This document shows, one piece after another, positions 10,067 to 35,762 of a DNA stretch of 64,000 nucleotides. The translations under genes were made by a program, and so were the position numbers. Under the pieces are notes generated by a model, which did not search any database, had not been told where the DNA came from, and was given only the letters and a program-made list of their open reading frames with translations. This stretch comes from an uncultured virus (IMG/VR IMGVR_UViG_3300044634_004095) (Duplodnaviria > Heunggongvirae > Uroviricota > Caudoviricetes). Every line of letters starts with the position of its first letter. Within the stretch, counting starts at the first letter, position 1. Location of the stretch: IMG/VR virus record IMGVR_UViG_3300044634_004095; one strand, written 5' to 3'.

Positions 10067-10091
10067 AGATATACAGTTTGGAAGAAACAAT

Positions 10092-19625: not shown

Positions 19626-20350
19626 CAGGAAACTCCGTCCACTGAAAATGCGTCAAGGATTTGCTTTGCACGACGACCGAATGTGAGTTCACACGCACGT
19701 TCCATGCCGACAGATTTGCGCAATTTGTCGAGAGCAAGAAATGCTCGCAAAGAGATTCTGTCGTCGCCAGCGTCAGCCATGCGAACTGCGTATTTACGCA
19801 AGTCAGACGAAAGACGAAGTAGAGCAGTTGGGTGCGGAGCGTCAATACGGATACGAATTGGGAAACGGTCTGCCAACGCTGTTGGGAGTTCTCCCATATT
19901 CTCAATGTTCGTTGTCATGATCGCTGAGAATCCTTCAGACGGTTTGAGTACATCGCCAGTTTCGGGATGCTCAAATGATGCTGATTCAGGTGAGTCAAGC
20001 ATGGCGAGAAGCGTTGCGAAAACGTCGCCACCTGCCTTGTCAATTTCGTCAACGATCAAGCGACCGCCATTAACGCCGTTGCCTTTCCATGCTTTGAGAG
20101 CAGAACCATCAAGCCACTGGAAGCCACCATGCTTAGAAGGCATGAATCCACCAGTAACGTCCATGTTCGTCATGTCCTCTGTGCAAACAAGACGAAATGC
20201 TCCTGCTTCTACATTGCCCATGCTCATTCCTGCATAAGTCTTTCCGATACCGCTTGGTCCGAAAAGAATTATTCTGTCAATTCCTGCCTCTAGGCATTCG
20301 TTAAATGCTTTCCAGCATTCGGGTAGTGTGTTGTCTGTGGTTGTAACCAT
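19625..20350 (-). CDS. MoxR-type AAA+ ATPase (CobS/CbbQ/NirQ-like)
   Basis: GPSGIGKT Walker A, LIVDEID Walker B, ALADRF. Confidence 0.85.
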   Translation of the reverse strand: MVTTTDNTLPECWKAFNECLEAGIDRIILFGPSGIGKTYAGMSMGNVEAGAFRLVCTEDMTNMDVTGGFMPSKHGGFQWLDGSALKAWKGNGVNGGRLIVDEIDKAGGDVFATLLAMLDSPESASFEHPETGDVLKPSEGFSAIMTTNIENMGELPTALADRFPIRIRIDAPHPTALLRLSSDLRKYAVRMADAGDDRISLRAFLALDKLRKSVGMERACELTFGRRAKQILDAFSVDGVS

Positions 20351-20749
20351 TGTCTAGTCTCCTCTAGTAGTTGGGATGGATTACTTAGTCAGATTAACAT
20401 GGCAGGGACAGACTGTTAATTAAATTGAGTGTGAGTGAAAGCAGTTCTTACATCATCCTTTAGTAACGGCGACCCTTTCCCCCACCGTCAATCTCTACCC
20501 GTGAGGAACAGTGAGAGAGAACCACATAATTTTTTTGCAAATTATTTTTCTTACATTATCCCAGCATGCCCCCGACAGAGACGAATTGATGTTGCTTGCG
20601 TGTGCGGGTTGGAGCCCCGGGCTCTGCACGCGTAGCGGGGCTTACACTGAGCTCGATTTATGGATGTTGCATTATCCTTTAGTAAGCGAATTTACATTAT
20701 CCTTTAGTAACAAGACGGCCGTTGTAAAGGATAATGTAGAGCCGAATCA

Positions 20750-21229
20750 TCACTCACGCTCTGGTGGGCAAGTTGCTTCGTAGAGACCATTCTTTATCTT
20801 CTTATAGTGGAGAGACTCCTTGATGTACCCTAAGGTTGTCTGATACGAGAACCCAGCGACCTCAACAAGTTGGTCTATGGAGAACTGCTCTCCTACATGG
20901 TCTTGTGCAAACTGCTCAAAAGCTGACCACTTGTCTCGTCGCTTCTCGGGCTTCTCGCTCTCATCACTGACAGAATGTCCAGTGAATCCATCTACTATAT
21001 ATTTTGCGATGTCGTCGGGAACGCCGTAGGTGCGTAGGAAATGCAATGGGTGACGGGTGCTTCCTTCACGCTGCCAAATGAGCAATACGTCCATTCCACG
21101 AACGGTCTCGGTGGCACGAGTGCTTTCATCTTTCGGAACTGAAAATGCATCTTTATATTTTTTTACAAGTTTTTGCCATAAGCCTTTATGGACTTCCAAT
21201 ACGAGTTCGGGGGTGATGGTCGTTTGCAT
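20750..21229 (-). CDS. hypothetical protein, possible C-terminal wHTH
   Basis: 159-aa ORF; start lies within a box A copy. Confidence 0.6.
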   Translation of the reverse strand: MQTTITPELVLEVHKGLWQKLVKKYKDAFSVPKDESTRATETVRGMDVLLIWQREGSTRHPLHFLRTYGVPDDIAKYIVDGFTGHSVSDESEKPEKRRDKWSAFEQFAQDHVGEQFSIDQLVEVAGFSYQTTLGYIKESLHYKKIKNGLYEATCPPERE

Positions 21230-21408
21230 TATCCTTTAGTGTCACTTTCCGTTTGGCTTGCTGTCGTTAGTAGTATTCGTAAGTCTAATAATATGTCCAT
21301 TATTACCGTTGCTGATACTGTCTCGCGGTTCGCACATTCCGCGAGAGCAGTATCAACTATGGCACATGAACGCTCAATCCATCGTGGGATATCACGCTCA
21401 GTCATTGC

Positions 21409-22128
21409 TTATTCGCCGTTTTTTTCTTTTTTGCGCTTTGGTGCATCACGTAATTTGCTTGTGTATCCACGAGCGACGGTGGCAAAACGAGTGAACATGA
21501 CAAATGAAATTATGGTTTGGGCAAGTTTTCCCATTTCAATTTCCTCTAATTCTTTTGCTCCGTAATTCTCAAATCCCAGCAACTCACTCATTGTGGAAAT
21601 TCCCTCGTCAAATACAGGAACACCAAAATCGTCATACTTGTATGGAGCGATTACCGTGTAGAGATTACGACATTCCCAATCAACGGCAGTGACCATTAGT
21701 GTCTCTCTCACTTCACTAAATGGGTTTTCCCGAAAATCTTTTTCAAGACCGCCCCCCTGTATCTGTCCAGCAACGATTGAATTCTCGGCAGGGCTAGTAT
21801 AACCCTCTGCAATAATTGCAATAAATGAAAATTCCTTAGCAGGCAAATGCTTTACTATGTCTCCAATGCAATCGTAAATGTCATCACGATGAATAAGCGG
21901 GAGTACAGCAACCTTGTAGGGCTTGCTTGTGTCGTTCTCGTGCTGAAATTCCATAGCCTCGTCAAAGGCTTCATCGCTTTCCTCTGTGCTAACAAAACCA
22001 ATCATCATGACAGACGGGTTGTCCTGCATTGCTTCTTCTTTGCACATTTCTGTTTTTGCGAAGATAGACCTATGCATGAATTCTTCGCACATAGTCTGCA
22101 TATCTAGTACCGTTGGTTGAATGTCCAT
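21409..22128 (-). CDS. hypothetical protein
   Basis: AAGGAG SD, 239 aa. Confidence 0.65.
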   Translation of the reverse strand: MDIQPTVLDMQTMCEEFMHRSIFAKTEMCKEEAMQDNPSVMMIGFVSTEESDEAFDEAMEFQHENDTSKPYKVAVLPLIHRDDIYDCIGDIVKHLPAKEFSFIAIIAEGYTSPAENSIVAGQIQGGGLEKDFRENPFSEVRETLMVTAVDWECRNLYTVIAPYKYDDFGVPVFDEGISTMSELLGFENYGAKELEEIEMGKLAQTIISFVMFTRFATVARGYTSKLRDAPKRKKEKNGE

Positions 22129-22170
22129 TTTATTCTCCTTGTTTAGTAGGTTGTATTAAGTCTCTTATTT

Positions 22171-22302
22171 CTATTCTTCTTCGTAATCTTCGTAATCGGC
22201 ATAATCTGGATTCTGACTGTATAATTTTTCTGCCCAATAAGCGTCGTCAGCACGTTCTTCTGCTGGGTGACCGCAACATGGTCTATCTTCGCAACTGCAC
22301 AT
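22171..22302 (-). CDS. 43-aa Cys-motif acidic microprotein (not in ORF track)
   Basis: MCSCEDRPCCGHPAEERADDAYWAEKLYSQNPDYADYEDYEEE; GAAAGGAG SD and promoter at 22333-22361. Confidence 0.6.
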   Translation of the reverse strand: MCSCEDRPCCGHPAEERADDAYWAEKLYSQNPDYADYEDYEEE

Positions 22303-22386
22303 TTGATTCTCCTTTCGTAGTGGGTTGTTTTTAGTGTATCAGCAATGGTACAGATAAGCGACTTTACATTATCCTTTAGTAACCGA

Positions 22387-22614
22387 TTAATTTGCCAGCA
22401 TGACATTGGGCTCCAAATTGAGAGCGTGACAGAGTGAAATAAAACTTTCCAAACTTGGCGAGTAATGTTCGTTCTCTATTCTGTTAATTGTTTTCCTATC
22501 AAGACCTGCTAGTTCGGCAAGTTCGCCCTGAGATAATCCCCGAAGTGATCGCTCTTCTTTTAGTCTTGCTGGAAAAATCTTTTCTACTATTGTTTTGGTA
22601 TTGCGTGTAGTCAT
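22387..22614 (-). CDS. XRE-family helix-turn-helix regulator
   Basis: RLKEERSLRGLSQGELAELAGLDRKTINRIEN; promoter TTGTGA-17-TACAGT at 22649-22677. Confidence 0.9.
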   Translation of the reverse strand: MTTRNTKTIVEKIFPARLKEERSLRGLSQGELAELAGLDRKTINRIENEHYSPSLESFISLCHALNLEPNVMLAN

Positions 22615-22866
22615 AATTGTTTTCCTTTCTTTGAGTACCGCAGGTGGAACTGTACCTACACAGGTTCTCAATCACAACCCTTTCCGCCACCGTCAAAAGC
22701 CAATAGGGGAATAGCGAGTGTAAAACTTGGCGCATTATCCCAACACGCCCCCGCAGCGACATTACCTAAATACGCCCCCATTCGACAAAAGCGCGGCGAG
22801 CAGGTTGAAGCCCCGCGGCCCTCCCTGCCGTAGCGGGGCTTATTCCGGCAAAAGTTACATTATCCT

Positions 22867-23190
22867 TTAGATAGGAATTGCATGAGCTAGACGAGCGTCT
22901 ACGATCTCGACACCATCTACGGGAGCAGACCACATGCGATGGACTATTGTCCAAAAACTTGGAACGGTGTAGGCAATCTCATCTCGTGACACTCCGTGCG
23001 AATCAAAACCCTCTTCCGTGCCAAACCGCGAAATAGAGACATATTCGGTGGCGGTTACATTATCCTTCAGTAACAGGCAGTGAGCCCCAACGAGTATTTC
23101 CCGACGAGCGATGCCGCTAATGAAGGAAAAGAATAAGATGATAGTGCTCCAAATCAGAGCAAATGGATTCGTGTTGTCTTTCTCGTTCAT
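22867..23190 (-). CDS. hypothetical protein carrying an in-frame box A copy (LKDNV)
   Basis: Operonic spacing with upstream gene; N-terminal TM. Confidence 0.5.
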   Translation of the reverse strand: MNEKDNTNPFALIWSTIILFFSFISGIARREILVGAHCLLLKDNVTATEYVSISRFGTEEGFDSHGVSRDEIAYTVPSFWTIVHRMWSAPVDGVEIVDARLAHAIPI

Positions 23191-23191
23191 G

Positions 23192-23644
23192 TCACCTAAC
23201 CCTTCTTACTTCTGGTTCGTCTTGAACCTTGATCCAATTTGGCTCTGGCTCATTCCACGTGAAGAAGTTGATGATGTCGTTATAGACGTGAAGGACCATT
23301 AGTCCACCCTTGCTGATGATGTAGACGTAATCGCACCACGAATCTTGATAATTTGCAGGCGTATACCATTCATTAGGGTTGCCTTGTTCCTCGTTGCCAG
23401 CAATACCATAGCCTTCTACAACTTCCCAGCGAGATTCCTCTGGCTCCTCGTTTGGCTGCCACGGCTTGAGAGTAGACCAGTAGAAGTGGTCGTCTACGAG
23501 AGTTTTCACTGCTTTATCGTAGCCGTCACGTTGTACAATTTCCCAAATGCTCTTGCCTTGATGTGCTGGATACCCATCCCAATGGGCATAGCGCCCCTTC
23601 CACGAGTCTCCATCTTGCTTTGCAATGATGCTTCTAGTCCCCAT
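23192..23644 (-). CDS. hypothetical phage protein
   Basis: MGTRSII...YAHWDGYP; GGAG SD. Confidence 0.7.
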   Translation of the reverse strand: MGTRSIIAKQDGDSWKGRYAHWDGYPAHQGKSIWEIVQRDGYDKAVKTLVDDHFYWSTLKPWQPNEEPEESRWEVVEGYGIAGNEEQGNPNEWYTPANYQDSWCDYVYIISKGGLMVLHVYNDIINFFTWNEPEPNWIKVQDEPEVRRVR

Positions 23645-23829
23645 TACACTCCCTCGCTTTCAGATACATCCCAGGGAATATCCCAGTTGTGACTTCCGTC
23701 TAGGTCTTTGGACTTCAGTTCGTCGTCTGTGAGTTTGTAGTAAGCCTCTAGTGCGGACTCTTTGTCTTCTGCCTCAACTTCATAAGAGTGTGAGATGTCT
23801 TCACTAACTGAAACAATAAACTTTTTCAT
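23644..23829 (-). CDS. hypothetical protein
   Basis: Follows promoter at 23862; acidic EVEAEDKESA. Confidence 0.6.
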   Translation of the reverse strand: MKKFIVSVSEDISHSYEVEAEDKESALEAYYKLTDDELKSKDLDGSHNWDIPWDVSESEGV

Positions 23830-24177
23830 TTTTTCTCTTTTCTTTTCTAGTAGGTAATTAAAATATACCAGTGCTGTTACACATAAGCAACTCTTCCGCC
23901 ACCGTCAATTGTTACCGAGCTCAAAAAAGTAAAATATTTTGCAAATAATTAAATAACATTATCTCAATACGACCCCGCATGTATCTGCCCCCGAGCAATG
24001 AGGTGGCCGCCGACCTAAGCCCCGGCGTCGACCCGACTTCGGCGGGGCTCATACCGCCAATCGCTTACATTATCCTTTAGTGATGAGTGCGTTACATTAT
24101 CCTTCAGCAACGAGCGCATGAGAACCTATACCAAAGGATAATGTAGAGGGTTACATTATCCTTTGGTAATCGGCGGG

Positions 24178-24663
24178 CTAGTCGTCGGTAGGTTCACCGC
24201 TGGGGATCTCTCCAGTGGTTAGCCATGAGTACATTTCATCACTGGACAGTGAGACAACGGTAGGGCTAGAGTTCAGCGCCTTCTCTGCTTCCTCTTTGAT
24301 AATCTCTGTCATGATCTCGGACAGTGCGAGGTGGGCAGAGATAGAAGCAAACTCAGGTGCTAGATATTTTTCGGGAACGTCGTAACTCTCTCCGTCGTAG
24401 TAGCCCTTAGCATTGAGTCCACCGACGAGAACAACATCACCAACCAGTGGGCGACTAAACATAATGGAAGCCATTACGTTTGCTGGAAGCCCGATGAGCA
24501 AGCCTTCATCGTGAACGTAGCCGACCAAATCATCAACGTCTTTATGAGTCACTGTGTCAATGTAGCCACCTACAGCGTCACGTATAGTCGGGTATTCATT
24601 ATCTTTCTCTAGTTCTAACGGCAAGACCTCGCCTGTCGTTTTAAGTAGTAATGCCTTTACCAT
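24178..24663 (-). CDS. DUF3846-like protein
   Basis: IRDAVGGYID...VHDEGLLIGLPAN...LVGDVVLVG. Confidence 0.7.
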   Translation of the reverse strand: MVKALLLKTTGEVLPLELEKDNEYPTIRDAVGGYIDTVTHKDVDDLVGYVHDEGLLIGLPANVMASIMFSRPLVGDVVLVGGLNAKGYYDGESYDVPEKYLAPEFASISAHLALSEIMTEIIKEEAEKALNSSPTVVSLSSDEMYSWLTTGEIPSGEPTDD

Positions 24664-24757
24664 TTCTGACCCCTTTCGGTCTCTGTTTAACTTATTTACA
24701 TTATCCTTTAGTAATTGGTGGGATCGCCATAACGACGACCCCACCAACTAGGCGAGA

Positions 24758-25366
24758 TTATTTCATCACTTCAGCGAGGTGGGTCTCTATGAAGTCGGTT
24801 GTCCACTCGCCCCAATGCTCGTCTCGGCTTCCGTATATTCCTGCGTCAATACTGCGAGCAACATCGGTTCTAATCTCAAAGACGGTAGGCACGTTTCGCA
24901 AAACCGTTGCAACGTCTTTGACGGTCAGTGCGTTGGCTTTCTGATACAAGACCACGCAAGCGTCGTAGAGGTGATCGGGTGGGATCATTGGGAACGCTAT
25001 TGACGCTGCCCTAATGCTCAGGTACTCGTTGCGAACTACTTGGACACGTAGGTCGGGTAACCCAAATCCATATTGACGGGTCATTTCCATTCCAGCGTCA
25101 ATGACTACGAAATCGTAATCGCCAATGCTTAACATACCGTTTAATTCATTAGGCGTTACGCCCTTGACGGTGATGCCGTAATGTCCTTCATTCTCTCGGA
25201 ACGTATTTACGGTTAGACCGAGCAACGCTGTGCAATCGTCGTTCTTTGATGGGTCAAGTAAGAGAACTCGCTCAGGAGATTTCTTACCCAATGCCAATGC
25301 AATGGAACAGGCGACGGTCGTTGTCCCGACTCCACCCTTTTGCGCTGTTACTTCTATGACCTTCAT
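24758..25366 (-). CDS. ParA/MinD/CpaE-like P-loop protein
   Basis: QKGGVGTTT deviant Walker A, RVLLLD, YDFVVIDAG. Confidence 0.75.
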   Translation of the reverse strand: MKVIEVTAQKGGVGTTTVACSIALALGKKSPERVLLLDPSKNDDCTALLGLTVNTFRENEGHYGITVKGVTPNELNGMLSIGDYDFVVIDAGMEMTRQYGFGLPDLRVQVVRNEYLSIRAASIAFPMIPPDHLYDACVVLYQKANALTVKDVATVLRNVPTVFEIRTDVARSIDAGIYGSRDEHWGEWTTDFIETHLAEVMK

Positions 25367-25488
25367 TTCTATACCCCTTTACGGTAATGGCGGATTTGCC
25401 ATATCATTACTGTACCACGCTAGGGACAGACTAGCGTTTTACATTATCCTTTAGTAGTGGGGGCAGGTTTTAACCCACCCCCAACTAA

Positions 25489-25911
25489 CTAGGAAGCCTT
25501 TACTTTTTTGGCTGGCTTTACGTCGGCTGGCTTCATTGCGCCTTTGGCAGGCTTGACAAGAACACGCACCGTGTCTGTCGTTTCCACGACGGTTTTGATT
25601 ACCTTCGCTGGGATCTCGCCCTTTGCGATTGCGCTGTCCCATGCTTTGGTGTCAATCGCTGGCTTCGTCACACGACGGAAAAGAGCAGGAGAAACTGCCT
25701 CTTTGAGTTTATCAAGCGACCACGAGCGTCGTGGTGATGGCGACACAGAGACAGTGAGTTCTGCGAATGTGTGGCTGTCAATGCCCGACACTGCGTAAGT
25801 CTCTAACAACAACTCACGAGCCTCGTCGTATGCGATTTCTGCTTGTTCTTTAGCGGTAACAGCCTTTAGGAAGGCTTCGGTTGCTTGGCTAACTTCTGAA
25901 TGTGTAGTCAT
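25489..25911 (-). CDS. hypothetical protein
   Basis: Own promoter at 25953; basic tail. Confidence 0.65.
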   Translation of the reverse strand: MTTHSEVSQATEAFLKAVTAKEQAEIAYDEARELLLETYAVSGIDSHTFAELTVSVSPSPRRSWSLDKLKEAVSPALFRRVTKPAIDTKAWDSAIAKGEIPAKVIKTVVETTDTVRVLVKPAKGAMKPADVKPAKKVKAS

Positions 25912-26245
25912 TTCTAGTACCTCTGTTCTTGTTGGTTATGGGTTACCCCATAACCTTACAAGACGGGGAACAGATTTGCAATACTCTTGACAATCTTTTT
26001 TGCATTATCTCAATCCGCCCCTGATAGCCCTTTCCGCCACCGTCAATTACTACAAGGTTCAGCAAAAATGTTCAGCAAATGTTTAATTGTTTGGAAATCG
26101 TGAAATCTGCATTATCCCAACACGCCCCCGACCATGAGAGCCTGCGTGGCGGTGTGAGCCCCGGCCTCGACCCGTGTTCGGCGGGGCTCTTATCAGATTA
26201 GTGTCATCTAATCGCTAATCTGTACCTTGTTGGGTATTGTTGTGC

Positions 26246-26485
26246 ATGGCAAAAAAACAGAACCCATATCCACACTATGAAGTATGCGAAATAGAAATAG
26301 TTTCACCTGACTTCGCTCGTGTCGGCTGGTCAATCAAGCACATGGAGACTGGCGAGTTAGTCACCGTTCTCGACCATGCAGACCCACATTTCCCGTGGTT
26401 CGCTAGTTCTAGGAATTGCGCTATCGCCTATGTGCGGTTTCTGAATTGCATTGTGCATGATGAACCCGTGTGCCATTGCGATTAA
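26246..26485 (+). CDS. hypothetical protein, leaderless
   Basis: ATG 5 nt after -10 TATTGT. Confidence 0.6.
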   Translation: MAKKQNPYPHYEVCEIEIVSPDFARVGWSIKHMETGELVTVLDHADPHFPWFASSRNCAIAYVRFLNCIVHDEPVCHCD

Positions 26486-26506
26486 TCGCACTATCCTGGA
26501 TAGTCG

Positions 26507-26555
26507 GTGGCTTGCTCTCGTCGGGAGAGCAAGCCACTTTACATTATCCTTTAGT
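26507..26555 (+). terminator. GC hairpin fused to box A
   Basis: GTGGCTTGCTCTC/GAGAGCAAGCCAC stem then TTTACATTATCC; near copy at about 35662. Confidence 0.6.
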
Positions 26556-26801
26556 GAGAACGAGCGAGCCACTTACATTATCCTTTAGTAAGAATGATGT
26601 AGATTATGGGCTATGGTATTCACTGAGAAATTGAATAAAGTACTTGACCTCATTTCCGCAGCAGATAGTTTGCTAGACGAAGCCCGTAATGCTATTGCCG
26701 TTGTTCGGCGTGGCAGGCTTTTTTTGGTTTCCAAAAACTAAAGGATAATGCAAAATGGGGGGGCAGGCTTTCGCCCACCCCCCCACTAGGAACTCAATCG
26801 T

Positions 26802-27209
26802 TTACAGGTACTGAGCCACACCCTTGTAGGTGCTTGTGCCGACGAACTCGTCGTCTGTCATTTTGAGAATGGAAATCGCATTTTTGATTTCCTCAATCTG
26901 GTTAGCGTGGTAGTGACCAATGTGTTCTGGTGACTCTGGCAGTTTTACGCTTGGCGAGAGGTTGAAGGTAAGGGTTACTTCTCTCATTTCGTCTCTCCAC
27001 GAGTCCTGCACTCGTGATGACTTAAAGGTAAGTTTGCTCGTGCCGACAAGTTTAACAAGAGACTTCTCAAAGGCTTCGTGTTCCTTTTCGTAGGCTTCTC
27101 TTGCTTTCTTGTAGTCTGCTACTTCCTTCTCTCGCTTCGCAAGAGCAACCTCTAGTGCTTTGATGAGTTTGGCTGTACTTACTTTTACGTTCATTGACTT
27201 GGTTGTCAT
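26802..27209 (-). CDS. hypothetical coiled-coil protein
   Basis: AAGGAG SD, promoter at 27250. Confidence 0.7.
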   Translation of the reverse strand: MTTKSMNVKVSTAKLIKALEVALAKREKEVADYKKAREAYEKEHEAFEKSLVKLVGTSKLTFKSSRVQDSWRDEMREVTLTFNLSPSVKLPESPEHIGHYHANQIEEIKNAISILKMTDDEFVGTSTYKGVAQYL

Positions 27210-27492
27210 TTTTTCTCCTTGTTACTTCTAGTAGGTGGGTAACAAGATAAGTGTACTGCACAGGGTACAGATACTCAATACTTTACATTATGCCAACACG
27301 CCCCCGACTGGAGAGGTTGAGCGACGACGGACAGAGCCCCGGCATCTCGCCGACTTTTGCGGGGCTTCGATGGGCAGTCGTTTACATTATCCTTTAGTAA
27401 AAAATGGGGGGGGACTCTCAGTACTGGTGGGTACTGAGAGTCCCTAACTAAAGGATAATGCAGAGGGTTACATTATCCTTTAGTAACAACCG

Positions 27493-27957
27493 CTAACTAA
27501 ATAGCGACTGAACTGCATCGGCTAGGGGACCACGACCTGAGTCGTCACCGCCCATAACCTCAACCTCGTTTAAGTCCTGAAATCGGACAACGCTAGTTAC
27601 TGAGTCGGCAGATGCACAGACAAGTAGGCGAACACGACGACGTGCTTCATGCTTGCTGGGTGCTGGCAAATCTTCATCGTTGCCGTCGTAATTATCGGGC
27701 AATGGTGAAGCCCAACCAGTAGTTACCAATACGATACAGTCATACCATTTCGCTGCGAACCTCGCCCCATCGCTGGAGAGAAGATCGTAGATGTCCTCTG
27801 CTTCGGTCACTTGGTCAAATAGATGAACCTCATCGCCGTCTGTCTCTACACCAAAAAGCAACGGCTTCGCTAACTCAAAAGCCTTATCTTCATTCTCACG
27901 AATGAGCAAATCGTGTATCTGTTGCTCAATGTTTTTGGAGATGTCTAGTGGTTTCAT
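27493..27957 (-). CDS. hypothetical protein
   Basis: GAAAGGG SD, promoter at 27993. Confidence 0.7.
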   Translation of the reverse strand: MKPLDISKNIEQQIHDLLIRENEDKAFELAKPLLFGVETDGDEVHLFDQVTEAEDIYDLLSSDGARFAAKWYDCIVLVTTGWASPLPDNYDGNDEDLPAPSKHEARRRVRLLVCASADSVTSVVRFQDLNEVEVMGGDDSGRGPLADAVQSLFS

Positions 27958-28284
27958 ATTTCCCTTTCATATGTGTCGTTGGTGACATTCTTACTGTACC
28001 TCATAGGGGACAGATTAGCAATTTGCATTATCCTTTAGTAGTGGGGCTATCCGCCACCGTCAAAGATTAGGGGACAACGTGACTCCGCTCAAAGTCACAG
28101 CCCTCTAGATGGTGAGAAACTTCTTTAATCGGATGACATTATCGCAACGCGCCCCCGACGATGAGTTGGCTGGAGTCTGGCTTGGGGCGACGGACAGAGC
28201 CCCGCTGCTCACCGCTTCAGCCGGGGCTTCGTCCCGATAAAGGTCATTTAATCGCCAACCTGTCCCCGTAGTGGTACGTTGTGA

Positions 28285-28545
28285 ATGTCGGCAGCGGGTC
28301 GGCACATACGGAGAGGGTACGAAGTGGAAAAATTGTCTTGCTTAGATTTTGGCAGTGGTGAGTGCGTAGGCGATGTGGAACTATCCCTCGCACAGCCTGT
28401 GCGCTATCGCACGAACGGGGAATTCATCATGTTCCCTCGTTGCGAAAAGCACTGGGACGAATACGCAGATAGGGCTCAGGCTCGCCAGGAGCGCCAGTGG
28501 GCGGCAGAACGGGCAGAGCGTGACGAATGGGCGAACTTTGAGTGA
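28285..28545 (+). CDS. hypothetical Cys-containing protein
   Basis: Promoter at 28252; start may be ATG 28285 or a later GTG. Confidence 0.55.
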   Translation: MSAAGRHIRRGYEVEKLSCLDFGSGECVGDVELSLAQPVRYRTNGEFIMFPRCEKHWDEYADRAQARQERQWAAERAERDEWANFE

Positions 28546-28724
28546 GTCGCGCCAAACTTTGCGAACGTGCCGAGAACGTCTCTCGGCACGTTCGCTCTAT
28601 TAGTTTGATCAAAGCCCCGGCCGAGGGCGAGCTCAGCGGGGCTCCAACCGCATTCGCGTCATCTAATCGCTAATCTGTCCCTGTCGTGGTATGTTGTGAA
28701 TGTAGTCAAGCGAAAGGAAAAGTA

Positions 28725-28994
28725 ATGCAACAATCACATTCAAGAGTCACAGAGTTAGAGCTGGGGGCTCCCGTCGTAGTGGGGCATAGGCTCCTACTCT
28801 GGAAGCGTTCATTCTTCTACGCAAACCGTGTATCATACATTGTGTTCTGCAAAGCAGACCCCGATGAGGTTCACGGCTACGCTGTATGGCGAGTAGAGAA
28901 AAACGCTCACGGCGAATACTACGCCGAGACAGGCTACTACTTCGCCGAGTCCGATCTAGTCGAAGCCATACAGGCATACGACGCTAGAGATTAA
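28725..28994 (+). CDS. hypothetical protein (similar to 34047-34361)
   Basis: GAAAGG SD, promoter at 28667. Confidence 0.6.
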   Translation: MQQSHSRVTELELGAPVVVGHRLLLWKRSFFYANRVSYIVFCKADPDEVHGYAVWRVEKNAHGEYYAETGYYFAESDLVEAIQAYDARD

Positions 28995-29139
28995 CGAGTT
29001 ACATTATCCTTTAGTGTTAGCGGGGGGTTCGCCCCCCGCTTTACATTATCCTTTAGTGTTAAACCTCTTTCTAAAGGATAATGCAGGCGGTTACATTATC
29101 CTTTAGTAAGAAAAGCACTTTAGTCGTCGCCGTGTTTCG

Positions 29140-29643
29140 TTAAACTCGCTTTGCACATACTGGACCGATACCACGAGCGACACTTTTTGCATCGGTTAGG
29201 TCTGCTCCACAGACACAGCACATAGACATTTCTACGCCTAAGGCGGTGGCTCGCTCAACGGTCATTCTGTCGCTTGCGCTTAATCTCTGAATACTTCCAC
29301 GCTCGTACTCAAAGCGCTCACTTTTTGTTGATGCTGTCGGGATAAAACGCATAGCGTACAAGTTGCCCGTTTCACGGCTCTGCTTGACCCTGTAAATACC
29401 TTCGGGGGTCTCGTACATTCCCGTAACGGTCACGGGGTCGCTTGGTGCTGACACTCTTACTTGGTCATTTGCCATAGAGCGTTCTACTGCTTCTATTTGG
29501 CGAATTGTTAATGAACCATAACGCTCAAACTTAGAGAGTAGGTCTGCATAGAACGAACTACGCCCTGAGTTGATAACGCAAAACTTTACTACTTTGAGAG
29601 TGCGTTCGTCGGGATTGTTATTCTCAATTTCTTTGATGTCCAT
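29140..29643 (-). CDS. DUF6011-like zinc-binding protein
   Basis: CCVCGADLTDAKSVARGIGPVCA. Confidence 0.75.
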   Translation of the reverse strand: MDIKEIENNNPDERTLKVVKFCVINSGRSSFYADLLSKFERYGSLTIRQIEAVERSMANDQVRVSAPSDPVTVTGMYETPEGIYRVKQSRETGNLYAMRFIPTASTKSERFEYERGSIQRLSASDRMTVERATALGVEMSMCCVCGADLTDAKSVARGIGPVCAKRV

Positions 29644-30262
29644 TGTTGCCCCTTTCATGGGTGTAGTGGTTATTCATATTGTACCTTATCGGGTACAGAC
29701 TAGGGTCGTTTTACATTATCCTTTAGTGTTCGGGGTCGTCTGTCTGATGTTCGGGATCGTCTGTCCCTGCTTCGTAGGCGTGCGAGAGCCAGCAAAATGA
29801 TGCACAGACAGGGCATACGACTACCTGCGGATAGTTCACGAGAACTCCATGCTCGTCTAAAACCTGAGAGCGTGTGAGTGGGTGTAGGGAACGGCAGTGT
29901 GAAAAATAGTAAGTCTTCATATTACTTACGAGAAACCTTCGGTAAAAAGATGTCAAGGAAAAATGATTAAAACATTTCCTCAAGAACGTGACATCACGAA
30001 AGTTCCTTCCGCCACCGTCAATAATTTTGAGTCGTTCGGGGAACGCAGTAAATTTGCATTATCGCAACGCGCCCCCGACAGTGATCCAGATTTTGCAAAA
30101 AACAGGAGCACGGACAAAGCCCCGCGTGAGACCGTTCCTGCCGGGGCTCTTTCGGATCATCCTCGAAAGCTGACTTTACGCGGCAATTCCGGGTTAGCGT
30201 CATTTAATCGCCAATCTGTACCTAGCGAGGTATGCTGCAAGCAACCCAACGAAAGGAAAGTA

Positions 30263-30607
30263 ATGAGAAAAATCAACTATGACACGATCACCGTTTTCGA
30301 CGATTGCGCCGAAGCCGATGAGTGGGAAAAAGAAAACGACAGAGAATGGATCCCTGTCGGCTGCATTGACACCGAGATTCCCTACCGCTGGGAAGGCTCA
30401 CAAGCGAAGATAGAACTGCATGCTGACCTGAATCAGTACTGGTGCGATGGCACCGTTCCTGGGTCTACTCGTGACTGTCTCATCAAGGATTGGAAAGTGG
30501 TTGTTTGGAAAGACAAGAACAACGACAACGACTACGAACTCCACTACGCAGAAAACGAACAAGACGGCAATGAAATCCTAGAGAGTCTCGCTGTTACATT
30601 ATCCTAG
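30263..30607 (+). CDS. hypothetical protein
   Basis: GAAAGGAAAG SD, promoter at 30208; upstream extension in the ORF track is repeat DNA. Confidence 0.65.
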   Translation: MRKINYDTITVFDDCAEADEWEKENDREWIPVGCIDTEIPYRWEGSQAKIELHADLNQYWCDGTVPGSTRDCLIKDWKVVVWKDKNNDNDYELHYAENEQDGNEILESLAVTLS

Positions 30608-30970
30608 AGTATGTATTGAGGCTCGCTCCCGTGTGGGGGCGAGCCACTTACATTATCCTTTAGTGTTAGCGGCGAGCCTGACCCCGGGGGCTTTCCGCCA
30701 CCGTCAAATAGTACAAGCAGGTATGACATCATTCTGAGCTCATGGCTGAAAGATGCACATTATCTGAACACGCCCCCGATGACGCAAATAAAAAGTTTGA
30801 CGCGAGAAGCCAGACAAAGCCCCGCGGCTCACCGCCTTCAGCGGGGCTTCGATGCTCGAGACTTTACATTATCCTTCAGTGAAAGAAGCTCGGGAATCCC
30901 AGCGCGGGGGCGCGCTGGGATTCCCCTAACCAAAGGATAATGTGGGGAGTACATTATCCTTTGGTGTTAA

Positions 30971-31399
30971 TCATTCAATCGGGAACGACTGAGCCTTTTT
31001 GATTAGCACGAGTAGTAGCGATTCTCTAGTGGGGACTAGATCCCTAATGAGTTCTAACGTTTCCGTGTGAAACTGATTGAATGACTTTTCACTGAAACGC
31101 GCAACGCCTACTTGGTTGTGAAACCTTGTAGACGGGAACTGCTGCACGTTGAATGGTTCCCAAATAGTGACGGTGAAACCGGCTGCGGGCTGCCACCAAA
31201 GCAAGCGCATAGTGGCGGTGTACTGTTTGCGCTTTGGGTCGTGGGTGAACTCTAGTTCTACTTGCTCGCCTGCCATTGAATTAGTGCCGCTGTATCGCTG
31301 ATCTAGTACTGGCGATCGCCACACGTATTTAATGCTACGGTCACCAATGATCGGTTGTGGGAACTTCAGGGTAATTTCTGGGTTTTGGGTTGTAGTCAT
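30971..31399 (-). CDS. hypothetical protein, leaderless
   Basis: ATG 6 nt after -10 TACTCT. Confidence 0.65.
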   Translation of the reverse strand: MTTTQNPEITLKFPQPIIGDRSIKYVWRSPVLDQRYSGTNSMAGEQVELEFTHDPKRKQYTATMRLLWWQPAAGFTVTIWEPFNVQQFPSTRFHNQVGVARFSEKSFNQFHTETLELIRDLVPTRESLLLVLIKKAQSFPIE

Positions 31400-31641
31400 A
31401 CCCAAAGAGTACTAGCAAGGGTACAGATTAGTGAATGTTTGACATTATCTCAGCACGCCCCCGACAGGTGAATGAGCAAGAGCAGGTTCAAGCCCCGCGG
31501 CCAGACGCTTGTAGCGGGGCTTCGATGTGAAACATTGTCAGTCTCGGTCGGGGGCGCATTTGGATAATGTTGCTTTAATTAACAATTTGATACTGACTAA
31601 CTATAATGACAACGTAAGCAACTACTAGAAGGAGTACTACT

Positions 31642-31938
31642 GTGAACGATATTTATTGCCCAGTATGTGGCGAACCGTGGGACAACGACACGCTACATGA
31701 ATACGCCGAGGAATATGAAACAACCTATAGAGCGACCTACAAATTATTTTTTTCCGATGGTTGCGCTGTGGCGTTCAAAGAATGGGACATAGCGTGTGAA
31801 CGCCCTGAGGGTGGTTCATCACGAGCCTTGTTTTCGTCATTGTTGGCAGAGATGCTAGGCGATGACGTGGACGGAATAATTAGCGAAATGCAGGACGCTG
31901 AGTTGCTTGGCTTACTGAACGACAATAGTAAAGGATAA
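31642..31938 (+). CDS. hypothetical zinc-binding protein
   Basis: CPVCGEPWD; AAGGAG SD; promoter TTAACA-17-TATAAT. Confidence 0.65.
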   Translation: MNDIYCPVCGEPWDNDTLHEYAEEYETTYRATYKLFFSDGCAVAFKEWDIACERPEGGSSRALFSSLLAEMLGDDVDGIISEMQDAELLGLLNDNSKG

Positions 31939-31943
31939 TGTAA

Positions 31944-32255
31944 ATGCTAACAATAAACGAAAATAACCTATTATTGAACGGCGATATTGTTGCCACGCTA
32001 CCAAACACAAGCGCACGGCAAGTGCTATTACGCGCATTGCTTGAAAGCCTATCTAATCGCGATGGCGTATTTCTTGCGCTATCTCACTTAGGGGAAGCGC
32101 GTACTGCTGATATCGCTCATCTTGTTGGCATAGATAGGTCAAATGCTGGCAGGGTTCTAGACAGCCTATTGTTAGAGGGAATGGTAAAGGTAGTAAACGA
32201 TTGCAATAAGGCTGGAACGGTAGGGCGACCATCTAGGGTTTGGGCGACCGTTTAA
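31944..32255 (+). CDS. winged-helix DNA-binding protein
   Basis: ARTADIAHLVGIDRSNAGRVLDSLLLEGMV...GRPSRVW. Confidence 0.7.
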   Translation: MLTINENNLLLNGDIVATLPNTSARQVLLRALLESLSNRDGVFLALSHLGEARTADIAHLVGIDRSNAGRVLDSLLLEGMVKVVNDCNKAGTVGRPSRVWATV

Positions 32256-32337
32256 CATTATCCTTTAGTGTGTGCGCGTCTATATTGGCGCGCACACACT
32301 TGAACACTAAAGGATAATGTAAAGAGTACGAAAACTA

Positions 32338-32808
32338 TTATTCGCTCATCGGGTTTGGGGCAATTTCTCCGAATACAGCCTCGTACATTTCTCGCCCTGC
32401 TTTCCACTCGTCCCACGACCCGTCAGATGAGACACGGATACACGACCCGTAAATAACCTTTGCTCTTATTAGTGAGGCGGTTACTACTGCGTCGTATGGC
32501 TTGTAAGCCGTTTTGCAAAATGAGAAATGGTCGGGCTCATCTTTGCGCCACTCGGGTTGAGTCGGGATAGCGTCCCACCAAAACGACTCGTGCCCATTGT
32601 CGCCGTTTTCATCGCTCACGCCATTAAATGCGAAATAACCCTCAGTACACACGGGCTGAGTGTTGGGTGCACCAAACGCGTCACCTAGTGCAATTCCGTT
32701 TTCTTGTGCATAATCGCAAATTGCTTTTACGTCTAGTCCCAATTTGCCAAACATATAAGCCGACCCTGCGTTATTCATTGGTCGCGAAACATAGTGCGTA
32801 TAGCCCAT
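32338..32808 (-). CDS. hypothetical phage protein
   Basis: MGYTHY...FCKTAYKPYDAVV...SSDG; AAGGAG SD. Confidence 0.7.
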   Translation of the reverse strand: MGYTHYVSRPMNNAGSAYMFGKLGLDVKAICDYAQENGIALGDAFGAPNTQPVCTEGYFAFNGVSDENGDNGHESFWWDAIPTQPEWRKDEPDHFSFCKTAYKPYDAVVTASLIRAKVIYGSCIRVSSDGSWDEWKAGREMYEAVFGEIAPNPMSE

Positions 32809-32895
32809 TTCTTTTCTCCTTGTCTAGTAGTTATTATTAGATTACTTTACGATATTCAGACTAGCGATTAAATTACATTATCCTTTAGTGATAGT

Positions 32896-33168
32896 TCACA
32901 AGTCAGGGTTGAACCAACCCCAAGAACCATCAACGTTAATTACTACGTCCTCGGGCGCTAGGCAGTTGATTAGCGGAACAGCAGTACTATTCCAACTCCA
33001 TGTAAAGTTTGGCTTTAGCGAAATATCGCAAATGGGTTTAGTTTCTCTATTGTCGCTTGTGATTAGTAACGTGGCAAGAACGACGACAACGGAAGTCGCC
33101 AATCCCCATACTATTATTCTTACGAAAGTGCGTAGCGTGTAGTAAGCAGATGACTTTTCATTGTTCAT
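32896..33168 (-). CDS. hypothetical membrane protein
   Basis: One TM; promoter at 33198. Confidence 0.6.
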   Translation of the reverse strand: MNNEKSSAYYTLRTFVRIIVWGLATSVVVVLATLLITSDNRETKPICDISLKPNFTWSWNSTAVPLINCLAPEDVVINVDGSWGWFNPDL

Positions 33169-33416
33169 ACTTTCCCCTTTTTCTAGTAGTTGTTATTAGA
33201 CTACTTGACGCTATTCAGACTAGCGATTAAATGACATTATCTCAACACGCCCCCGACAAGAACAAGCGTGAGAGGTTTCAGCTTAAGCCCCGCAGGCCAG
33301 CCTGTCCCCCGGGGCTCCTACCGGATTCAGCCACAAGCGCATGACTCGAAATTGGCAAGCGCCGTTACTAAAGGATGATGCCGGATTACATCATCCTTTA
33401 GTAACGATTGCTCCTA

Positions 33417-33836
33417 CTAGAGTCCCCGTTCCCTGCGCTGTTGTTCTGTCACAGGGCGCAACGTTGTCTCGCTGCCGGTTGGGGCATCGTGGTGAGATAG
33501 TGAGTATTCAACTCGGTCGGAATAAACCTCATAGTGCATGCGCCATTCACTTCTGACTGTCATGGCTATAAGCATTTCTTCAACTTTGTCTACCTTGAAA
33601 TGTCCGGATATATCGCCGTTCCAAAGTCGCAAATTCTCAACGGACCACCAATCAGTTTCGTTGCTGTGGCGTAGTTCCATTGTTGCCTCTCCGAACTCGG
33701 CTACTGAGTCGCTCCAGCAATAACCAAAACACTCGGATGCTTCTTTATAGTCTCCGGTGTTTTCGTCATAGGCGGTGCAAGTGCATAGGTTGGTTATTTC
33801 TCCGGCTGTGATGAGTGTTTTTTTGGTTGTTGTCAT
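33417..33836 (-). CDS. hypothetical protein, leaderless
   Basis: ATG 6 nt after -10 TAAATT; HHDAPTG. Confidence 0.65.
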   Translation of the reverse strand: MTTTKKTLITAGEITNLCTCTAYDENTGDYKEASECFGYCWSDSVAEFGEATMELRHSNETDWWSVENLRLWNGDISGHFKVDKVEEMLIAMTVRSEWRMHYEVYSDRVEYSLSHHDAPTGSETTLRPVTEQQRRERGL

Positions 33837-34046
33837 GTCTTCAATTTACCATTGAGGGTACAAACTAGCGTTTTTGCATTATCCTTTAGTAATGTTCTTT
33901 TCTCCAAATTTGCAAAACTTCTTTTTTCGTGTAATACAAGTAAAAGTGATAAGGGTAGTCATGAGTCCCATCACAGGGCAAGCGATAAAACCCCGTTTTT
34001 GTTTTTTCTATACTTTTTAGTGTTGGTGTAATTTTTGGCATTGCGC

Positions 34047-34361
34047 TCACCAACCTCCCCGAGCCTCATAGTCTCCAACTGAACGCTCAATTTCATTTGA
34101 CAGAAAATAGTGTCCTGCCTCTGCAAGAAAACCCTCAGGGCGAGCGGAAATAATCCACGTCACGTACTTGTGATATGACCCCCTATTGTTGGACTCACAG
34201 AGTGCAATCCAACTAGAGTAAGTATCCCCAATAACTCTCTCCGTGAGACGCTTGCAACGCAATACGGTGTGATCGGAAATGGACATACCTTTTGCAAGTA
34301 AGTTGAATTCTGCTTGTGTCTGCCCGTTGTGATCGTTAATTGTTTCTAATTCTGTTTGCAT
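34047..34361 (-). CDS. hypothetical protein (similar to 28725-28994)
   Basis: AGGAG SD, promoter at 34398. Confidence 0.65.
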   Translation of the reverse strand: MQTELETINDHNGQTQAEFNLLAKGMSISDHTVLRCKRLTERVIGDTYSSWIALCESNNRGSYHKYVTWIISARPEGFLAEAGHYFLSNEIERSVGDYEARGGW

Positions 34362-34562
34362 TTTTTCTCCTAGCAATTGGTAGTAGGTGTTGTTAGTAAC
34401 GTACCTTGCAGGTAACAGGCTAACTATAAATAAACATTATCGCAACACGCCCCCGATATGATCAGTCTGCGAGCCGGAGGGGAGAAGCCCCGCGTGGGGC
34501 GTGCGAAGCCGGGGCTTTAATGCTCGACAACAGCATTATCCTTGAGTGTCGGCGAGCGGCGC

Positions 34563-34895
34563 TTACCCGTGCCAGTTTTCAGACCGCTCTATGAAGTTGC
34601 GCAAACTTTCCTCGTCGGTCATTTTTTCTTTCTCGCCTTCTTCGATAATCCAACCGAAAACGTCCTGACGTATGGCGCATCGTTCTTCTACTGCTTTCAC
34701 AGCTTGAGCGGGCGTGAGTGCCTTTTCGCCAAAACCACGCAACCCGGCGTCCCATTCCCAACCGAACGACTCAACAAGATCGGCATCGTCGTAGCACTCG
34801 TAGAGCTCTGACTCAAAAAGGTTCTGGGGGTCGCTGTAGAGCGGCATTGCTTTAATTGCGGCGACTATTTCGTCGTGTTGTGGGTGAGTTTTCAT
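34563..34895 (-). CDS. hypothetical protein
   Basis: AAGGAG SD. Confidence 0.65.
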   Translation of the reverse strand: MKTHPQHDEIVAAIKAMPLYSDPQNLFESELYECYDDADLVESFGWEWDAGLRGFGEKALTPAQAVKAVEERCAIRQDVFGWIIEEGEKEKMTDEESLRNFIERSENWHG

Positions 34896-34921
34896 TTCTT
34901 TCTCCTTTTGTTTGGGTTTGT

Positions 34922-35218
34922 TTAATAATTCATTTTGTCAAAAGCGGCGGCGGCGCCTTTAGCCATTGCGTCTTGACGAAAGGCATAGGTCGTGTCAAAC
35001 GCAACCCGCAGAACATTCCGGTGAAGTACTGAGATCTCCTCTTTTTCCAGAACGTCGTAATTTGCATTGTCGCCATACTCGCACTCAAGCACGACTGCCA
35101 CGCTGTGCTTTGTGAGCACGCTTTTAACCTTGACGAACTTAATTTCGCCATTCACTTTTGCGGCGAAAACTACTTTTTTGTTTTTGTCAATAGCGGCGCC
35201 GATGTCCCATACCTTCAT
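34922..35218 (-). CDS. hypothetical protein
   Basis: AAGGAG SD, promoter at 35260. Confidence 0.65.
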   Translation of the reverse strand: MKVWDIGAAIDKNKKVVFAAKVNGEIKFVKVKSVLTKHSVAVVLECEYGDNANYDVLEKEEISVLHRNVLRVAFDTTYAFRQDAMAKGAAAAFDKMNY

Positions 35219-35446
35219 GTTCTTGTCTCCTTGTGTGTGTTGTTCCTGCCGATGACTTAAAAATACCAGCAGGGGTACAGATTAGCGAAAAAGCTACCCT
35301 AATCAGGTTGAGGCGAGGCGAACAAGCCCCGGCTTCGTCCGCGCTCAGCGGGGCTCGCATGGGGTTGGTGTTCTTTTATCGCTAATCTGTACCTGTCATG
35401 ACAGAATAGGAACACGGGGGAAACGCCCTCGGGATTAGGGGAGATT

Positions 35447-35638
35447 ATGCCACTCTGGAAACAAAGAACAGAAGTAGACAAGGGCTACAAAGACATCGTG
35501 CTGAGGGAATTGGGAATAGAACAAGACCCCAAAGACTGGGAGCGCTCAAATTGGGTGATCTTTTTGTTGTGCGCTGGTTTTGACATAGAAACGATTACAA
35601 GGTTTCTAGCAGACGACGGTCGCTTCGTTTACGACTAA
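35447..35638 (+). CDS. hypothetical protein
   Basis: GGAG SD, promoter at 35379. Confidence 0.55.
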   Translation: MPLWKQRTEVDKGYKDIVLRELGIEQDPKDWERSNWVIFLLCAGFDIETITRFLADDGRFVYD

Positions 35639-35762
35639 AAAGATTATCCTAGATAGTTCGGGTGGCTTGCTCTCGTAGGGAGAGCAAGCCACTTTACATT
35701 ATCCTTTAGTAATGGGTCGGGGTTTTCTCCCGACCCATTACGGTCTATTGTCGTAACGACCC

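Follow-up and report, generated by a model that had tools for sequence, protein, structure and literature searches.

The 64,000-nucleotide DNA sequence of the uncultured virus IMGVR_UViG_3300044634_004095 (IMG/VR; Duplodnaviria, Heunggongvirae, Uroviricota, Caudoviricetes), hereafter the window, contains a field of small genes whose intergenic spacers carry many copies of a short repeat, Box A. The window is the early-gene region of an uncultivated lake phage; a WhiB gene and actinophage-like best hits point to an actinobacterium as the probable host. Seven times in this field two Box A copies lie close together in inverted orientation, just past the stop codon of a gene. Here we describe the distribution of Box A, the structure of the inverted pairs and the explanations that may account for them.

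Box A is a real, non-random feature of this DNA. Of its 43 copies, 32 have ACTAAAGGATAATGTAA on the minus, coding, strand; in the other 11 it is the plus strand that carries this sequence. Since nearly all genes there are minus-strand genes, we call the minus-strand reading sense and the plus-strand reading antisense. The 15-mer core of the repeat has 47 matches with up to 3 mismatches, compared with a mean of 1.90 and a maximum of 8 in 100 dinucleotide shuffles. Within 16.7–35.7 kb lie 44 of the 47, the exceptions being those at 10847 and 51425, far outside, and at 35999, just past the last accepted copy. A 104-kb IMG/VR record, G001, overlaps the window and extends beyond it. The first 8.7 kb of this record, which correspond to the Box A field of the window, contain 22 of its 25 near-matches. 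Because G001 has boxes only in this part, the field is a 19-kb block and Box A is not a genome-wide repeat.

A single Box A 17-mer has no dyad symmetry. Copies cluster 2–4 to a spacer, in direct as well as inverted order. The repeat contains a Shine-Dalgarno-like (SD-like) AAAGGA and the codons AUG-UAA. Translation of the AUG-UAA as a mini-open reading frame (ORF) was considered and dropped; the gap between AAAGG and AUG is only 3 nt, compared with 5–9 nt at real starts. Iterons were likewise dropped, since the copies are spread over 19 kb. Several start regions in the window (for example at 33190, 32830, 22345 and 20365) and in three related loci, L186–L188, share CTACTA(C/G)-(G)AAAGG upstream of ATG, and Box A (ACTA-AAGGA-TA-ATG) resembles a compressed copy of such a start region.

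The early genes are arranged in cassettes with a recurring order: stop codon, Box A (single or as a pair), an AGCCCCG..CGGGGCT hairpin, an extended -10 promoter, a second promoter (P2), and the gene. The first promoter motif is of the TGnGATAAT extended -10 type, with an unusually conserved GC-rich stretch upstream. The P2 box looks like the real per-gene promoter and the counterpart of promoter boxes found in the related loci. The ATG codons at 33836 and 31405 each lie 6 nt after the -10 of P2, which suggests leaderless mRNAs. A second slot for Box A is found 4–8 nt upstream of the P2 box, 28–32 nt upstream of the P2 -10, and at 24696 Box A is the sole promoter-like element before a gene. The hairpin, followed by GGGGGCGTGTTGnGATAATG, is present after 5 of the 7 pairs and also at further spacers. 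Hairpins of this AGCCCCG/CGGGGCT type between cassettes (for example 24020-24050, 27340-27372, 30815-30850 and 33296-33327, and also in L186–L188) have variable loops of 17–25 nt; their loops are too long and their arms too uniform for ordinary terminators.

The initial annotation had reported five head-to-head Box A pairs, each close to a minus-strand stop codon. All five were located, the ORFs that end at these stop codons exist, and two further pairs were found (pairs 6 and 7; Table 1). All seven start 5–32 nt past a minus-strand stop codon, and in the five spacers that are long (248–399 nt) the pair sits in the first 2–7% of the available positions. The arms are 14–20 nt long and 94–100% complementary, with no bulges. 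Both arm orders are present and the spacers vary from 2 to 36 nt. In pairs 6 and 7 the antisense arm comes before the sense arm, the opposite of pairs 1–5; a further sense box accompanies pair 6 (20667-20683), and the 20-nt arms of pair 7 enclose a GC hairpin (32267-32300) in the 36-nt spacer between the boxes. Third sense boxes follow four of the five head-to-head pairs, so that alternative helices (I16, I19) can be drawn. For 27382-27484 and 30864-30965 the arrangement given at the outset, A(fwd)-GC hairpin-A(rev)-A(fwd), is correct.

Of the 11 antisense copies, seven lie no more than 36 nt from a sense copy; three of the others adjoin plus-strand genes and one pairs with itself. An AGCCCCG hairpin and an extended -10 promoter come next after five of the seven pairs, while the other two pairs lie between convergent genes: pair 3 at the junction with a plus-strand gene ending at 28994, and pair 7 overlapping the stop of a plus-strand winged helix-turn-helix (wHTH) gene, 31944-32255. 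All seven pairs thus mark the ends of transcription units. Other unit ends in the region bear GC hairpins at the same position as the pairs. One of the hairpins located directly after a stop, at 18030..18095, is made with an antisense Box A and a partial second arm, and has an 18-bp stem with CCUUUA in the loop (predicted free energy -27.7 kcal/mol).

The two arms of a pair match. In each of the 7 pairs the arms have identical bases at box positions 4–15, and in 3 of 7 both arms have the same non-consensus base. The shared changes are as first described. Pairs 1 (24130) and 4 (30929) have G at box position 15 in both arms (CCAAAGG/CCTTTGG), and the two arms of pair 5 (33367) read GGATGATG/CATCATCC, a GATGAT/CATCAT variant at box position 7, with 18-nt arms that are perfectly complementary. 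Pair 2 has the consensus core, with a U-G wobble in the minus RNA. When the 14 arms are shuffled among pairs, seven identical pairs arise in 0.23% of 100000 trials (P 0.0023); when 14 arms are drawn from all 43 boxes, 3 or more matched non-consensus pairs arise in 0.001% (P 0.00001). Variation in positions 4–15 is available, since 8 of the 29 unpaired boxes deviate from the consensus there. The first bases of the boxes depend on the type of arm: antisense arms start with C in 5 of 7 and T in 2 of 7, sense arms with T in 6 of 7 and G in 1 of 7. Because these bases differ by arm type, yet each pair shares its own variant, the matching of the arms arose after divergence at the loop end.

A fold and covariation check had been proposed, and was run here within this one genome on the five head-to-head pairs. 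RNAalifold predicts 17 base pairs, two of them with changes on both sides. The double changes are U-A to C-G twice and A-U to G-C once, and one base pair is U-G in some sequences and U-A in others. All 13 base pairs in alignment columns 5–17 are intact, and the observed covariation score was reached in 8 of 500 shuffles. For the same pairs the minus RNA has predicted free energies of -21.7 to -32.1 kcal/mol (z -3.9 to -9.2) and the plus RNA of -16.8 to -30.1 kcal/mol, the minus RNA being the more stable in 4 of 5. In the proposal that pairing is selected, one part holds: the arms are not independent, and pairing or identity is kept within this genome. The other part, selection itself, has a rival in homogenisation without function. 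A search of Rfam gave 4 matches, all far under the gathering scores.

Table 1. Box A copies, inverted pairs and accompanying features of the window, with promoter boxes of three related loci
Feature	Position	Strand	Description	Predicted fold
Box A field	16768..35710	both	17-nt repeat TTACATTATCCTTTAGT; 43 copies at 17-mer level	
Pair 1	24130..24167 (arms 24130-24146/24151-24167)	minus	10 nt past stop 24178 of ORF 24178-24747 (DUF3846)	minus RNA -27.6 kcal/mol, z -8.6
Extra sense boxes near pair 1	24092-24108, 24065-24081			
Pair 2	27447..27484 (arms 27447-27463/27468-27484)	minus	8 nt past stop 27493	minus RNA -24.8 kcal/mol, plus RNA -16.8 kcal/mol
After pair 2	27382..27444	minus	GC hairpin 27411-27444, T-run 27399-27404, third sense box 27382-27398	
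Pair 3	29070..29107 (arms 29070-29086/29091-29107)	minus	32 nt past stop 29140 of ORF 29140-29658 (DUF6011)	
Extra boxes near pair 3	29041-29057, 28999-29015		flank GC hairpin 29017-29040	
Pair 4	30929..30965 (arms 30929-30945/30949-30965)	minus	5 nt past stop 30971	minus RNA -21.7 kcal/mol
After pair 4	30864..30925	minus	15-bp GC hairpin 30892-30925, then third sense box 30864-30880	
Pair 5	33363..33406 (boxes 33367-33383/33386-33402)	minus	14 nt past stop 33417	minus RNA -32.1 kcal/mol, z -9.2
Pair 6	20692..20739 (arms 20692-20708/20723-20739)	minus	14-nt spacer; 10 nt past stop 20750	-20.8 kcal/mol, z -2.6 (weakest)
Pair 7	32252..32323 (boxes 32253-32269/32306-32322)	minus	15 nt past minus-strand stop 32338	-37.5 kcal/mol, z -7.6
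Post-stop hairpin	18030..18095	minus	after stop 18090; antisense Box A 18047-18063 and partial second arm	
Extended -10 type motif	20572-34453, e.g. 33253, 31461, 27304	all minus	GGGGGCG(T/C)GTTGnGATAATG; 13 sites	
P2 box	25434, 26215, 28018, 28670, 29703, 30211, 31431, 32864, 33223, 33868, 35285, 35382	each oriented with downstream gene	aatcGCTAaTCTGTaCC-n6-gGTAnnnT; 12 clear copies	
WhiB-family transcription factor gene	11765-12121	plus	Pfam E 2.8e-16	
L188 promoter box			TAGGAAACTCCAGCC-n5-GGTATAGAC; 34 copies	
L187 promoter box			TTGAGATAGGTTGCAcg-n5-GaTAnnaT; 15 copies	
L186 promoter box			AGGTGTAGCATG..TGgTAtAAT; 19 copies	

What might the pairs do? We tentatively favour, at somewhat below an even chance, the explanation that they form a stem-loop at the 3' end of mRNAs and that its pairing is under selection. 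Box A would be a lineage-specific 17-nt boundary element of early-gene cassettes. One of its slots lies just past the stop codon, ahead of the AGCCCCG..CGGGGCT hairpin and the promoter that comes next, and the other directly upstream of P2. Where an inverted second copy is present, the minus transcript, that is the 3' untranslated end of the mRNA of the upstream gene, would fold into a perfect stem-loop of 14–20 bp. Such a stem-loop would block 3' exonucleases, or would assist pausing, processing or termination; in either case one cassette would be closed off ahead of the promoter that follows. Selection would keep the pairing, and with it the matched changes in both arms. A 3'-end fold in mRNA fits best because of the position after stops, the indifference to arm order and spacer, the matched perfect cores, and the presence of antisense copies only as partners in the minus-gene context. 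As both arm orders and spacers of 2–36 nt are tolerated, a fold is favoured over a rigid protein dimer site. We infer, then, that it is RNA that folds, that the fold works at the 3' end, and that the arms are matched by selection and not by copying from arm to arm.

The kind of action can be narrowed further. The canonical form of an intrinsic terminator, a GC-rich hairpin with a U-tract of 7–9 nt, was tried for the pairs and rejected; their stems are AT-rich and they have no T-run. A scan for consensus promoters and terminators gave no enrichment over shuffles (promoters, 19 sites against 23.9 expected) and its terminators include none of the seven pairs. Mycobacterial RNA polymerase is described as needing a U-tract at intrinsic terminators (PMC3993855), and since none follows the pairs they are unlikely to be efficient terminators alone. 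For the same reason a stabilising, pausing or processing role would be expected over plain intrinsic termination.

Several observations weigh against the 3'-end stem-loop. The pairs lack a following U-tract in all 7 cases, and their stems are AT-rich. Directly after pairs 2 and 4 comes a GC hairpin; after pair 2 the hairpin 27411-27444 and its T-run make a canonical terminator on the minus strand, next to which the pair looks redundant. L186–L188 run hairpin-plus-promoter cassettes without Box A, which is therefore dispensable for the layout. The stem-loop does not explain the 29 of 43 boxes that are unpaired. The wobble asymmetry is split, favouring the minus RNA in 3 pairs and the plus RNA in 2, and does not settle the strand. 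Finally, the covariation sample is small, at 5 to 7 sequences with two or three events. As the variant of pair 1 is also that of pair 4, both may go back to a single changed unit, which leaves two or three independent double changes. Three of these points keep us from a firmer statement: relatives that lack Box A, pairs that look redundant beside GC hairpins, and single copies left unexplained.

Alternatively, the pairs may be a functionless by-product of a multiplying repeat, in which inverted neighbours are kept identical by template switching or gene conversion. We consider this unlikely, though a serious contender. The correction of quasi-palindromes by template switching is an established mutational route. 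The boxes cluster two to four per spacer, direct and inverted, as a multiplying repeat would. The loops of pairs 1–3 are nearly identical (AACCCTCT or AACCGCCT) and these pair units seem to have been copied whole; few events are needed, given the variant shared by pairs 1 and 4; and L186–L188 keep the cassette layout without Box A. On the other hand, homogenisation leaves unexplained why the pairs take the first position after the stop in spacers of 248–399 nt, and why, among minus-strand genes, an antisense copy is never without a partner. Mismatches close to the loop persist in 3 of 5 pairs, though copying of this kind would tend to erase them. The pairs are also identical in four IMG/VR contigs, and in the four DNA runs compared with the window no variant was seen in the arms. 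If Box A were instead a DNA site for an orientation-specific phage protein, a stoperator-like operator or roadblock, the pairs would block both directions or form a protein-bound cruciform. This is an improbable explanation, although an asymmetric 17-mer with 43 copies in spacers, 32 of them oriented with the minus-strand genes, is consistent with it; 5 of the other 11 copies adjoin plus-strand genes, for which their orientation is possibly sense. The sequence of Box A is specific to this phage, and the probable host is an actinobacterium, a group in which such systems have been described (PMC6550527). Candidate binders are encoded in the field: an XRE-type helix-turn-helix (HTH) protein (22387-22671), the wHTH protein (31944-32255), whose ATG lies 0 nt after a Box A, and an HA plus sigma-70 region-4-like protein (16849-17241). 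Against this, independent sites do not need the same variant in both arms, and spacer length and arm order vary, for which reason a dimeric operator was dropped. The field takes up only 19 kb, in a genome whose length is at least 104 kb; stoperators, by contrast, are described as genome-wide (PMC9283540). The XRE protein resembles the dimeric, palindrome-binding C-proteins and not a monomeric stoperator repressor, and a comparison of the HTH proteins with the PDB gave generic HTH matches only, with no likeness to a stoperator repressor.

It is very improbable that Box A is itself a promoter, with GATAAT or TAATGT as -10, and that the pairs are promoters placed face to face. The same low probability applies to a variant of this explanation, in which the sense copies at 27468 and 30949 would start transcription in the loop and produce an RNA of about 65 nt, with an anti-box at its 5' end, that ends at the GC hairpin. 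GATAATG is common to Box A and the 13 extended -10 sites, and Box A takes the place of these sites 28–32 nt upstream of the P2 -10. Its position before the gene at 24696, where it is the only promoter-like element, and the hairpin that follows pairs 2 and 4 in the manner of a small-RNA terminator also agree with a promoter. However, Box A lacks both the TG of an extended -10 and any conserved -35, and the consensus promoter scan is not enriched. Sense copies at 26539, 26573, 28999, 29041, 30594, 30648 and 35694 point into the 3' ends of plus-strand genes, face-to-face promoters 2–4 nt apart would exclude each other, and the matched changes are not needed by a promoter. Hardly credible is the proposal that the pairs are sites for the recombination of gene cassettes, either folded in the manner of attC or as units like those of the repetitive extragenic palindromic (REP) type, moved by a dedicated enzyme. 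They are palindromes directly past the stops of small, functionally unassigned genes within a mosaic region, which agrees with such sites. Yet a Pfam scan of 103 ORFs of the window found no integrase, tyrosine or HUH transposase family. The stems are perfect and unbulged, with arms of 14–20 nt, short loops and no GTTRRRY core, and the cassettes bear their own promoters, while pairs are present at only 7 of about 30 genes. Where public runs show contig breaks and joints at boxes, repeats from other loci in the genome explain them.

The sense-antisense-sense triplets at 4 of the 5 head-to-head pairs may be modelled as RNA switches that sense translation, an idea to which we give little credence. 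When a ribosome terminates 5–14 nt upstream, it would sit on the base of the first arm, and would free the antisense arm for the downstream sense copy. The models used were the alternative helices I16 and I19 and the enclosing form at 32252-32323. If such switches exist, the translation of a cassette would set the fold, and hence read-through, stability or ribosome access at the next border, and the SD-like AAAGGA and the AUG-UAA of Box A would be masked or exposed.

Single copies of Box A may be put to other uses. A T-rich Box A follows a GC hairpin by 0–2 nt at four plus-strand gene ends (26539, 29041, 30648 and 35694, all plus), and on the minus strand the copy at 26737 lies 3 nt after the GC hairpin of a minus-strand gene. 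From its sequence and placement, Box A at these five sites is the predicted U-tract of a canonical terminator. Four genes take their stop codon from the TAA inside Box A. The repeat abuts a start codon in 2 of its 43 copies, at 21224 and 31927. At 21224-21240 a variant, ATGCAA, opens the ATG-TAA of Box A into a start that overlaps the upstream stop (TAATG); the copy at 31927-31943 contains the stop codon of a plus-strand gene, and its last base is directly followed by the ATG of the wHTH gene. As a border element Box A thus serves several purposes, and all 43 copies cannot be accounted for by one role.

The phage is abundant and is present in 20 public lake-water runs; no RNA run is listed among those that contain it. 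We found no isolated phage that is closely related at the DNA level; with three proteins, tblastn found either nothing or only actinophage matches of <60% identity, and locus searches with single proteins gave identical copies only. The Box A 17-mer was found at 34 IMG/VR loci, where those with multiple boxes are four contigs that have the same boxes and spacings as the window; in the four single-match IMG/VR records searched for Box A, the matches looked like chance. Searches of IMG/VR with the class II and P2 motifs gave the same phage only, or unrelated coding repeats. The pattern of the pairs was matched at 120 or more loci in metagenome contigs, and all those listed are unrelated terminator-like palindromes, AAAAGGAT..ATCCTTTT. 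In GTDB genomes a Box A 16-mer has 120 single matches in unrelated taxa, a number that fits chance, and a full-text search of the literature for the Box A sequence found no paper. In one public run there are two extra G at 27405, in the poly-G/C tract beside the terminator hairpin that follows pair 2, so that the natural population varies in length at this point. Other cargo of the window (10041-10730, 46997-48457, 52967-53647, 54711-55976 and 56805-57876) includes a proteasome-subunit-like protein, a Nol-like carbamoyltransferase, ThyX, two 2OG-Fe(II) oxygenases, tRNA-Met and tRNA-Ile (anticodon tat).

More distant relatives could be reached through the protein encoded at 26802-27209, whose homologues have from 37% to 100% identity. 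An aligned selection of these leads to three IMG/VR loci at 57–58% and three at 32–35%. Box A was not found in the three closer ones, L186–L188. They have promoter boxes of their own, many times repeated and oriented with the genes on two diverging arms (Table 1), together with many leaderless starts, and both the AGCCCCG/CGGGGCT hairpins and the hairpin-promoter layout are kept. Since they keep this layout without Box A, their boxes correspond to P2 of the window and not to Box A, which is an addition in the lineage of this phage. The promoter boxes diverge from a centre (about 9200-9420 in L186, 8480-8560 in L187 and 9800-9930 in L188) that is rich in repeats like TTATCCACA, a DnaA box, and that may be an origin of replication. 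In the window there is no cluster of DnaA boxes, with 18 matches against 16.2 expected. Another motif, TGACGGTGGYGGAAG, has 14 minus-strand matches with up to 3 mismatches between 13773 and 30706 of the window, compared with 2.1 expected by chance. It is also found just upstream of some promoter boxes in L186–L188, whose own boxes differ, and may be the site for a shared factor.

The Box A field shows where one transcription unit borders on the next in this abundant lake phage. The compensatory changes within one genome, the position after stop codons and the relatives free of Box A together allow a clean test of an RNA fold against a protein site. If the fold is functional, the phage builds its 3'-end structures from one reusable module.

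How does Box A compare with known repeats? The attC sites of integrons are imperfect palindromes of 57–141 nt with bulged bases and RYYYAAC/GTTRRRY cores, in promoterless cassettes next to an integrase. The Box A pairs are likewise palindromic and lie directly past the stop of a cassette gene. The likeness to attC suggested in the initial annotation fails in every structural feature tested: the arms are 14–20 nt long and have no bulges, and the outer flank, GTTACTA, does not fit GTTRRRY. Instead of one site per promoterless cassette in one orientation, there are promoter-like boxes belonging to the cassettes, only 7 pairs where the genes number about 30, and both orders of the arms. By Pfam, none of the 103 ORFs scanned belongs to an integrase or recombinase family. 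REP units are imperfect palindromes with hundreds of copies per chromosome, tied to RAYT transposases; they stabilise upstream mRNA and occur singly or clustered, in both orientations. A likeness to REP and bacterial interspersed mosaic elements (BIME), also suggested at the outset, stands in so far as the Box A pairs are extragenic, located after stops and hairpin-forming. It does not extend to the single Box A, which unlike REP is not palindromic, nor to a transposase, as no RAYT (HUH Y1) family was found among the 103 ORFs scanned with Pfam.

The promoter early stem-loop (PeSL) cassettes of T4-type phages are described as conserved motifs of terminator plus promoter between small early genes in variable regions (PMC2839356, PMC4122927). 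The stop-hairpin-promoter module of the window is of this kind, a likeness that concerns the module around Box A and not Box A itself. Unlike in PeSL, Box A sits on top of the hairpin-promoter module, which the relatives keep without it. Gene exchange of the PeSL type could be sought in the joints and loose ends at window boxes in four runs, which are explained by repeats from other loci. In Cluster O mycobacteriophages and Cluster EG Microbacterium phages, inverted repeats of 17–18 bp have been described (PMC4351075, PMC7302621), like the Box A pairs in being a short dyad-symmetric motif with many copies in spacers and an unknown role. In the available descriptions these have arms of 7 bp and a spacer of 2–3 bp, the size of a protein site, and lie typically 14–22 bp before starts; here arms of 14–20 bp follow stops.

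The stoperators of Cluster A mycobacteriophages are asymmetric sites of about 13–17 bp with dozens of copies, mostly in one orientation, and with a sequence that differs between related phages (PMC6550527, PMC9283540), as does that of Box A. They are genome-wide and bound by the immunity repressor, whereas Box A is confined to 19 kb with candidate HTH genes only, and the descriptions at hand do not present them as hairpin-forming pairs with matched changes. The start-associated sequences (SAS) and extended start-associated sequences (ESAS) are known from Cluster K mycobacteriophages and Cluster EF Microbacterium phages. By these accounts, SAS lie 3–8 bp before start codons, and ESAS, just upstream of SAS, are imperfect 17-bp inverted repeats with spacers of 4–13 bp whose function is unknown (PMC3203893, PMC7302621). 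As reported there, they resemble Box A in being short, asymmetric and group-specific, with 10–20 or more copies in spacers, mostly in one orientation, and in having an SD-like core (GGGATAGGAGCCC and GGGAAAGGACCCC in SAS/ESAS, AAAGGA in Box A). ESAS and the Box A pairs are alike in arm length and spacer, but the pairs follow stop codons and no SAS comes after them. Unlike SAS, Box A is only rarely found next to a start codon, and unlike ESAS its pairs are perfect and are built from the box itself. From these comparisons Box A appears to be a member, in variant form, of the family of phage-specific intergenic repeats, with SAS/ESAS, stoperators and the T4-type PeSL as its nearest counterparts. 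Phages of actinobacteria bear several such group-specific short repeats (SAS/ESAS, stoperators, and the Cluster O and EG dyads), most of them without a known role, and Box A adds to these a repeat whose paired copies carry matched changes just past the ends of genes.

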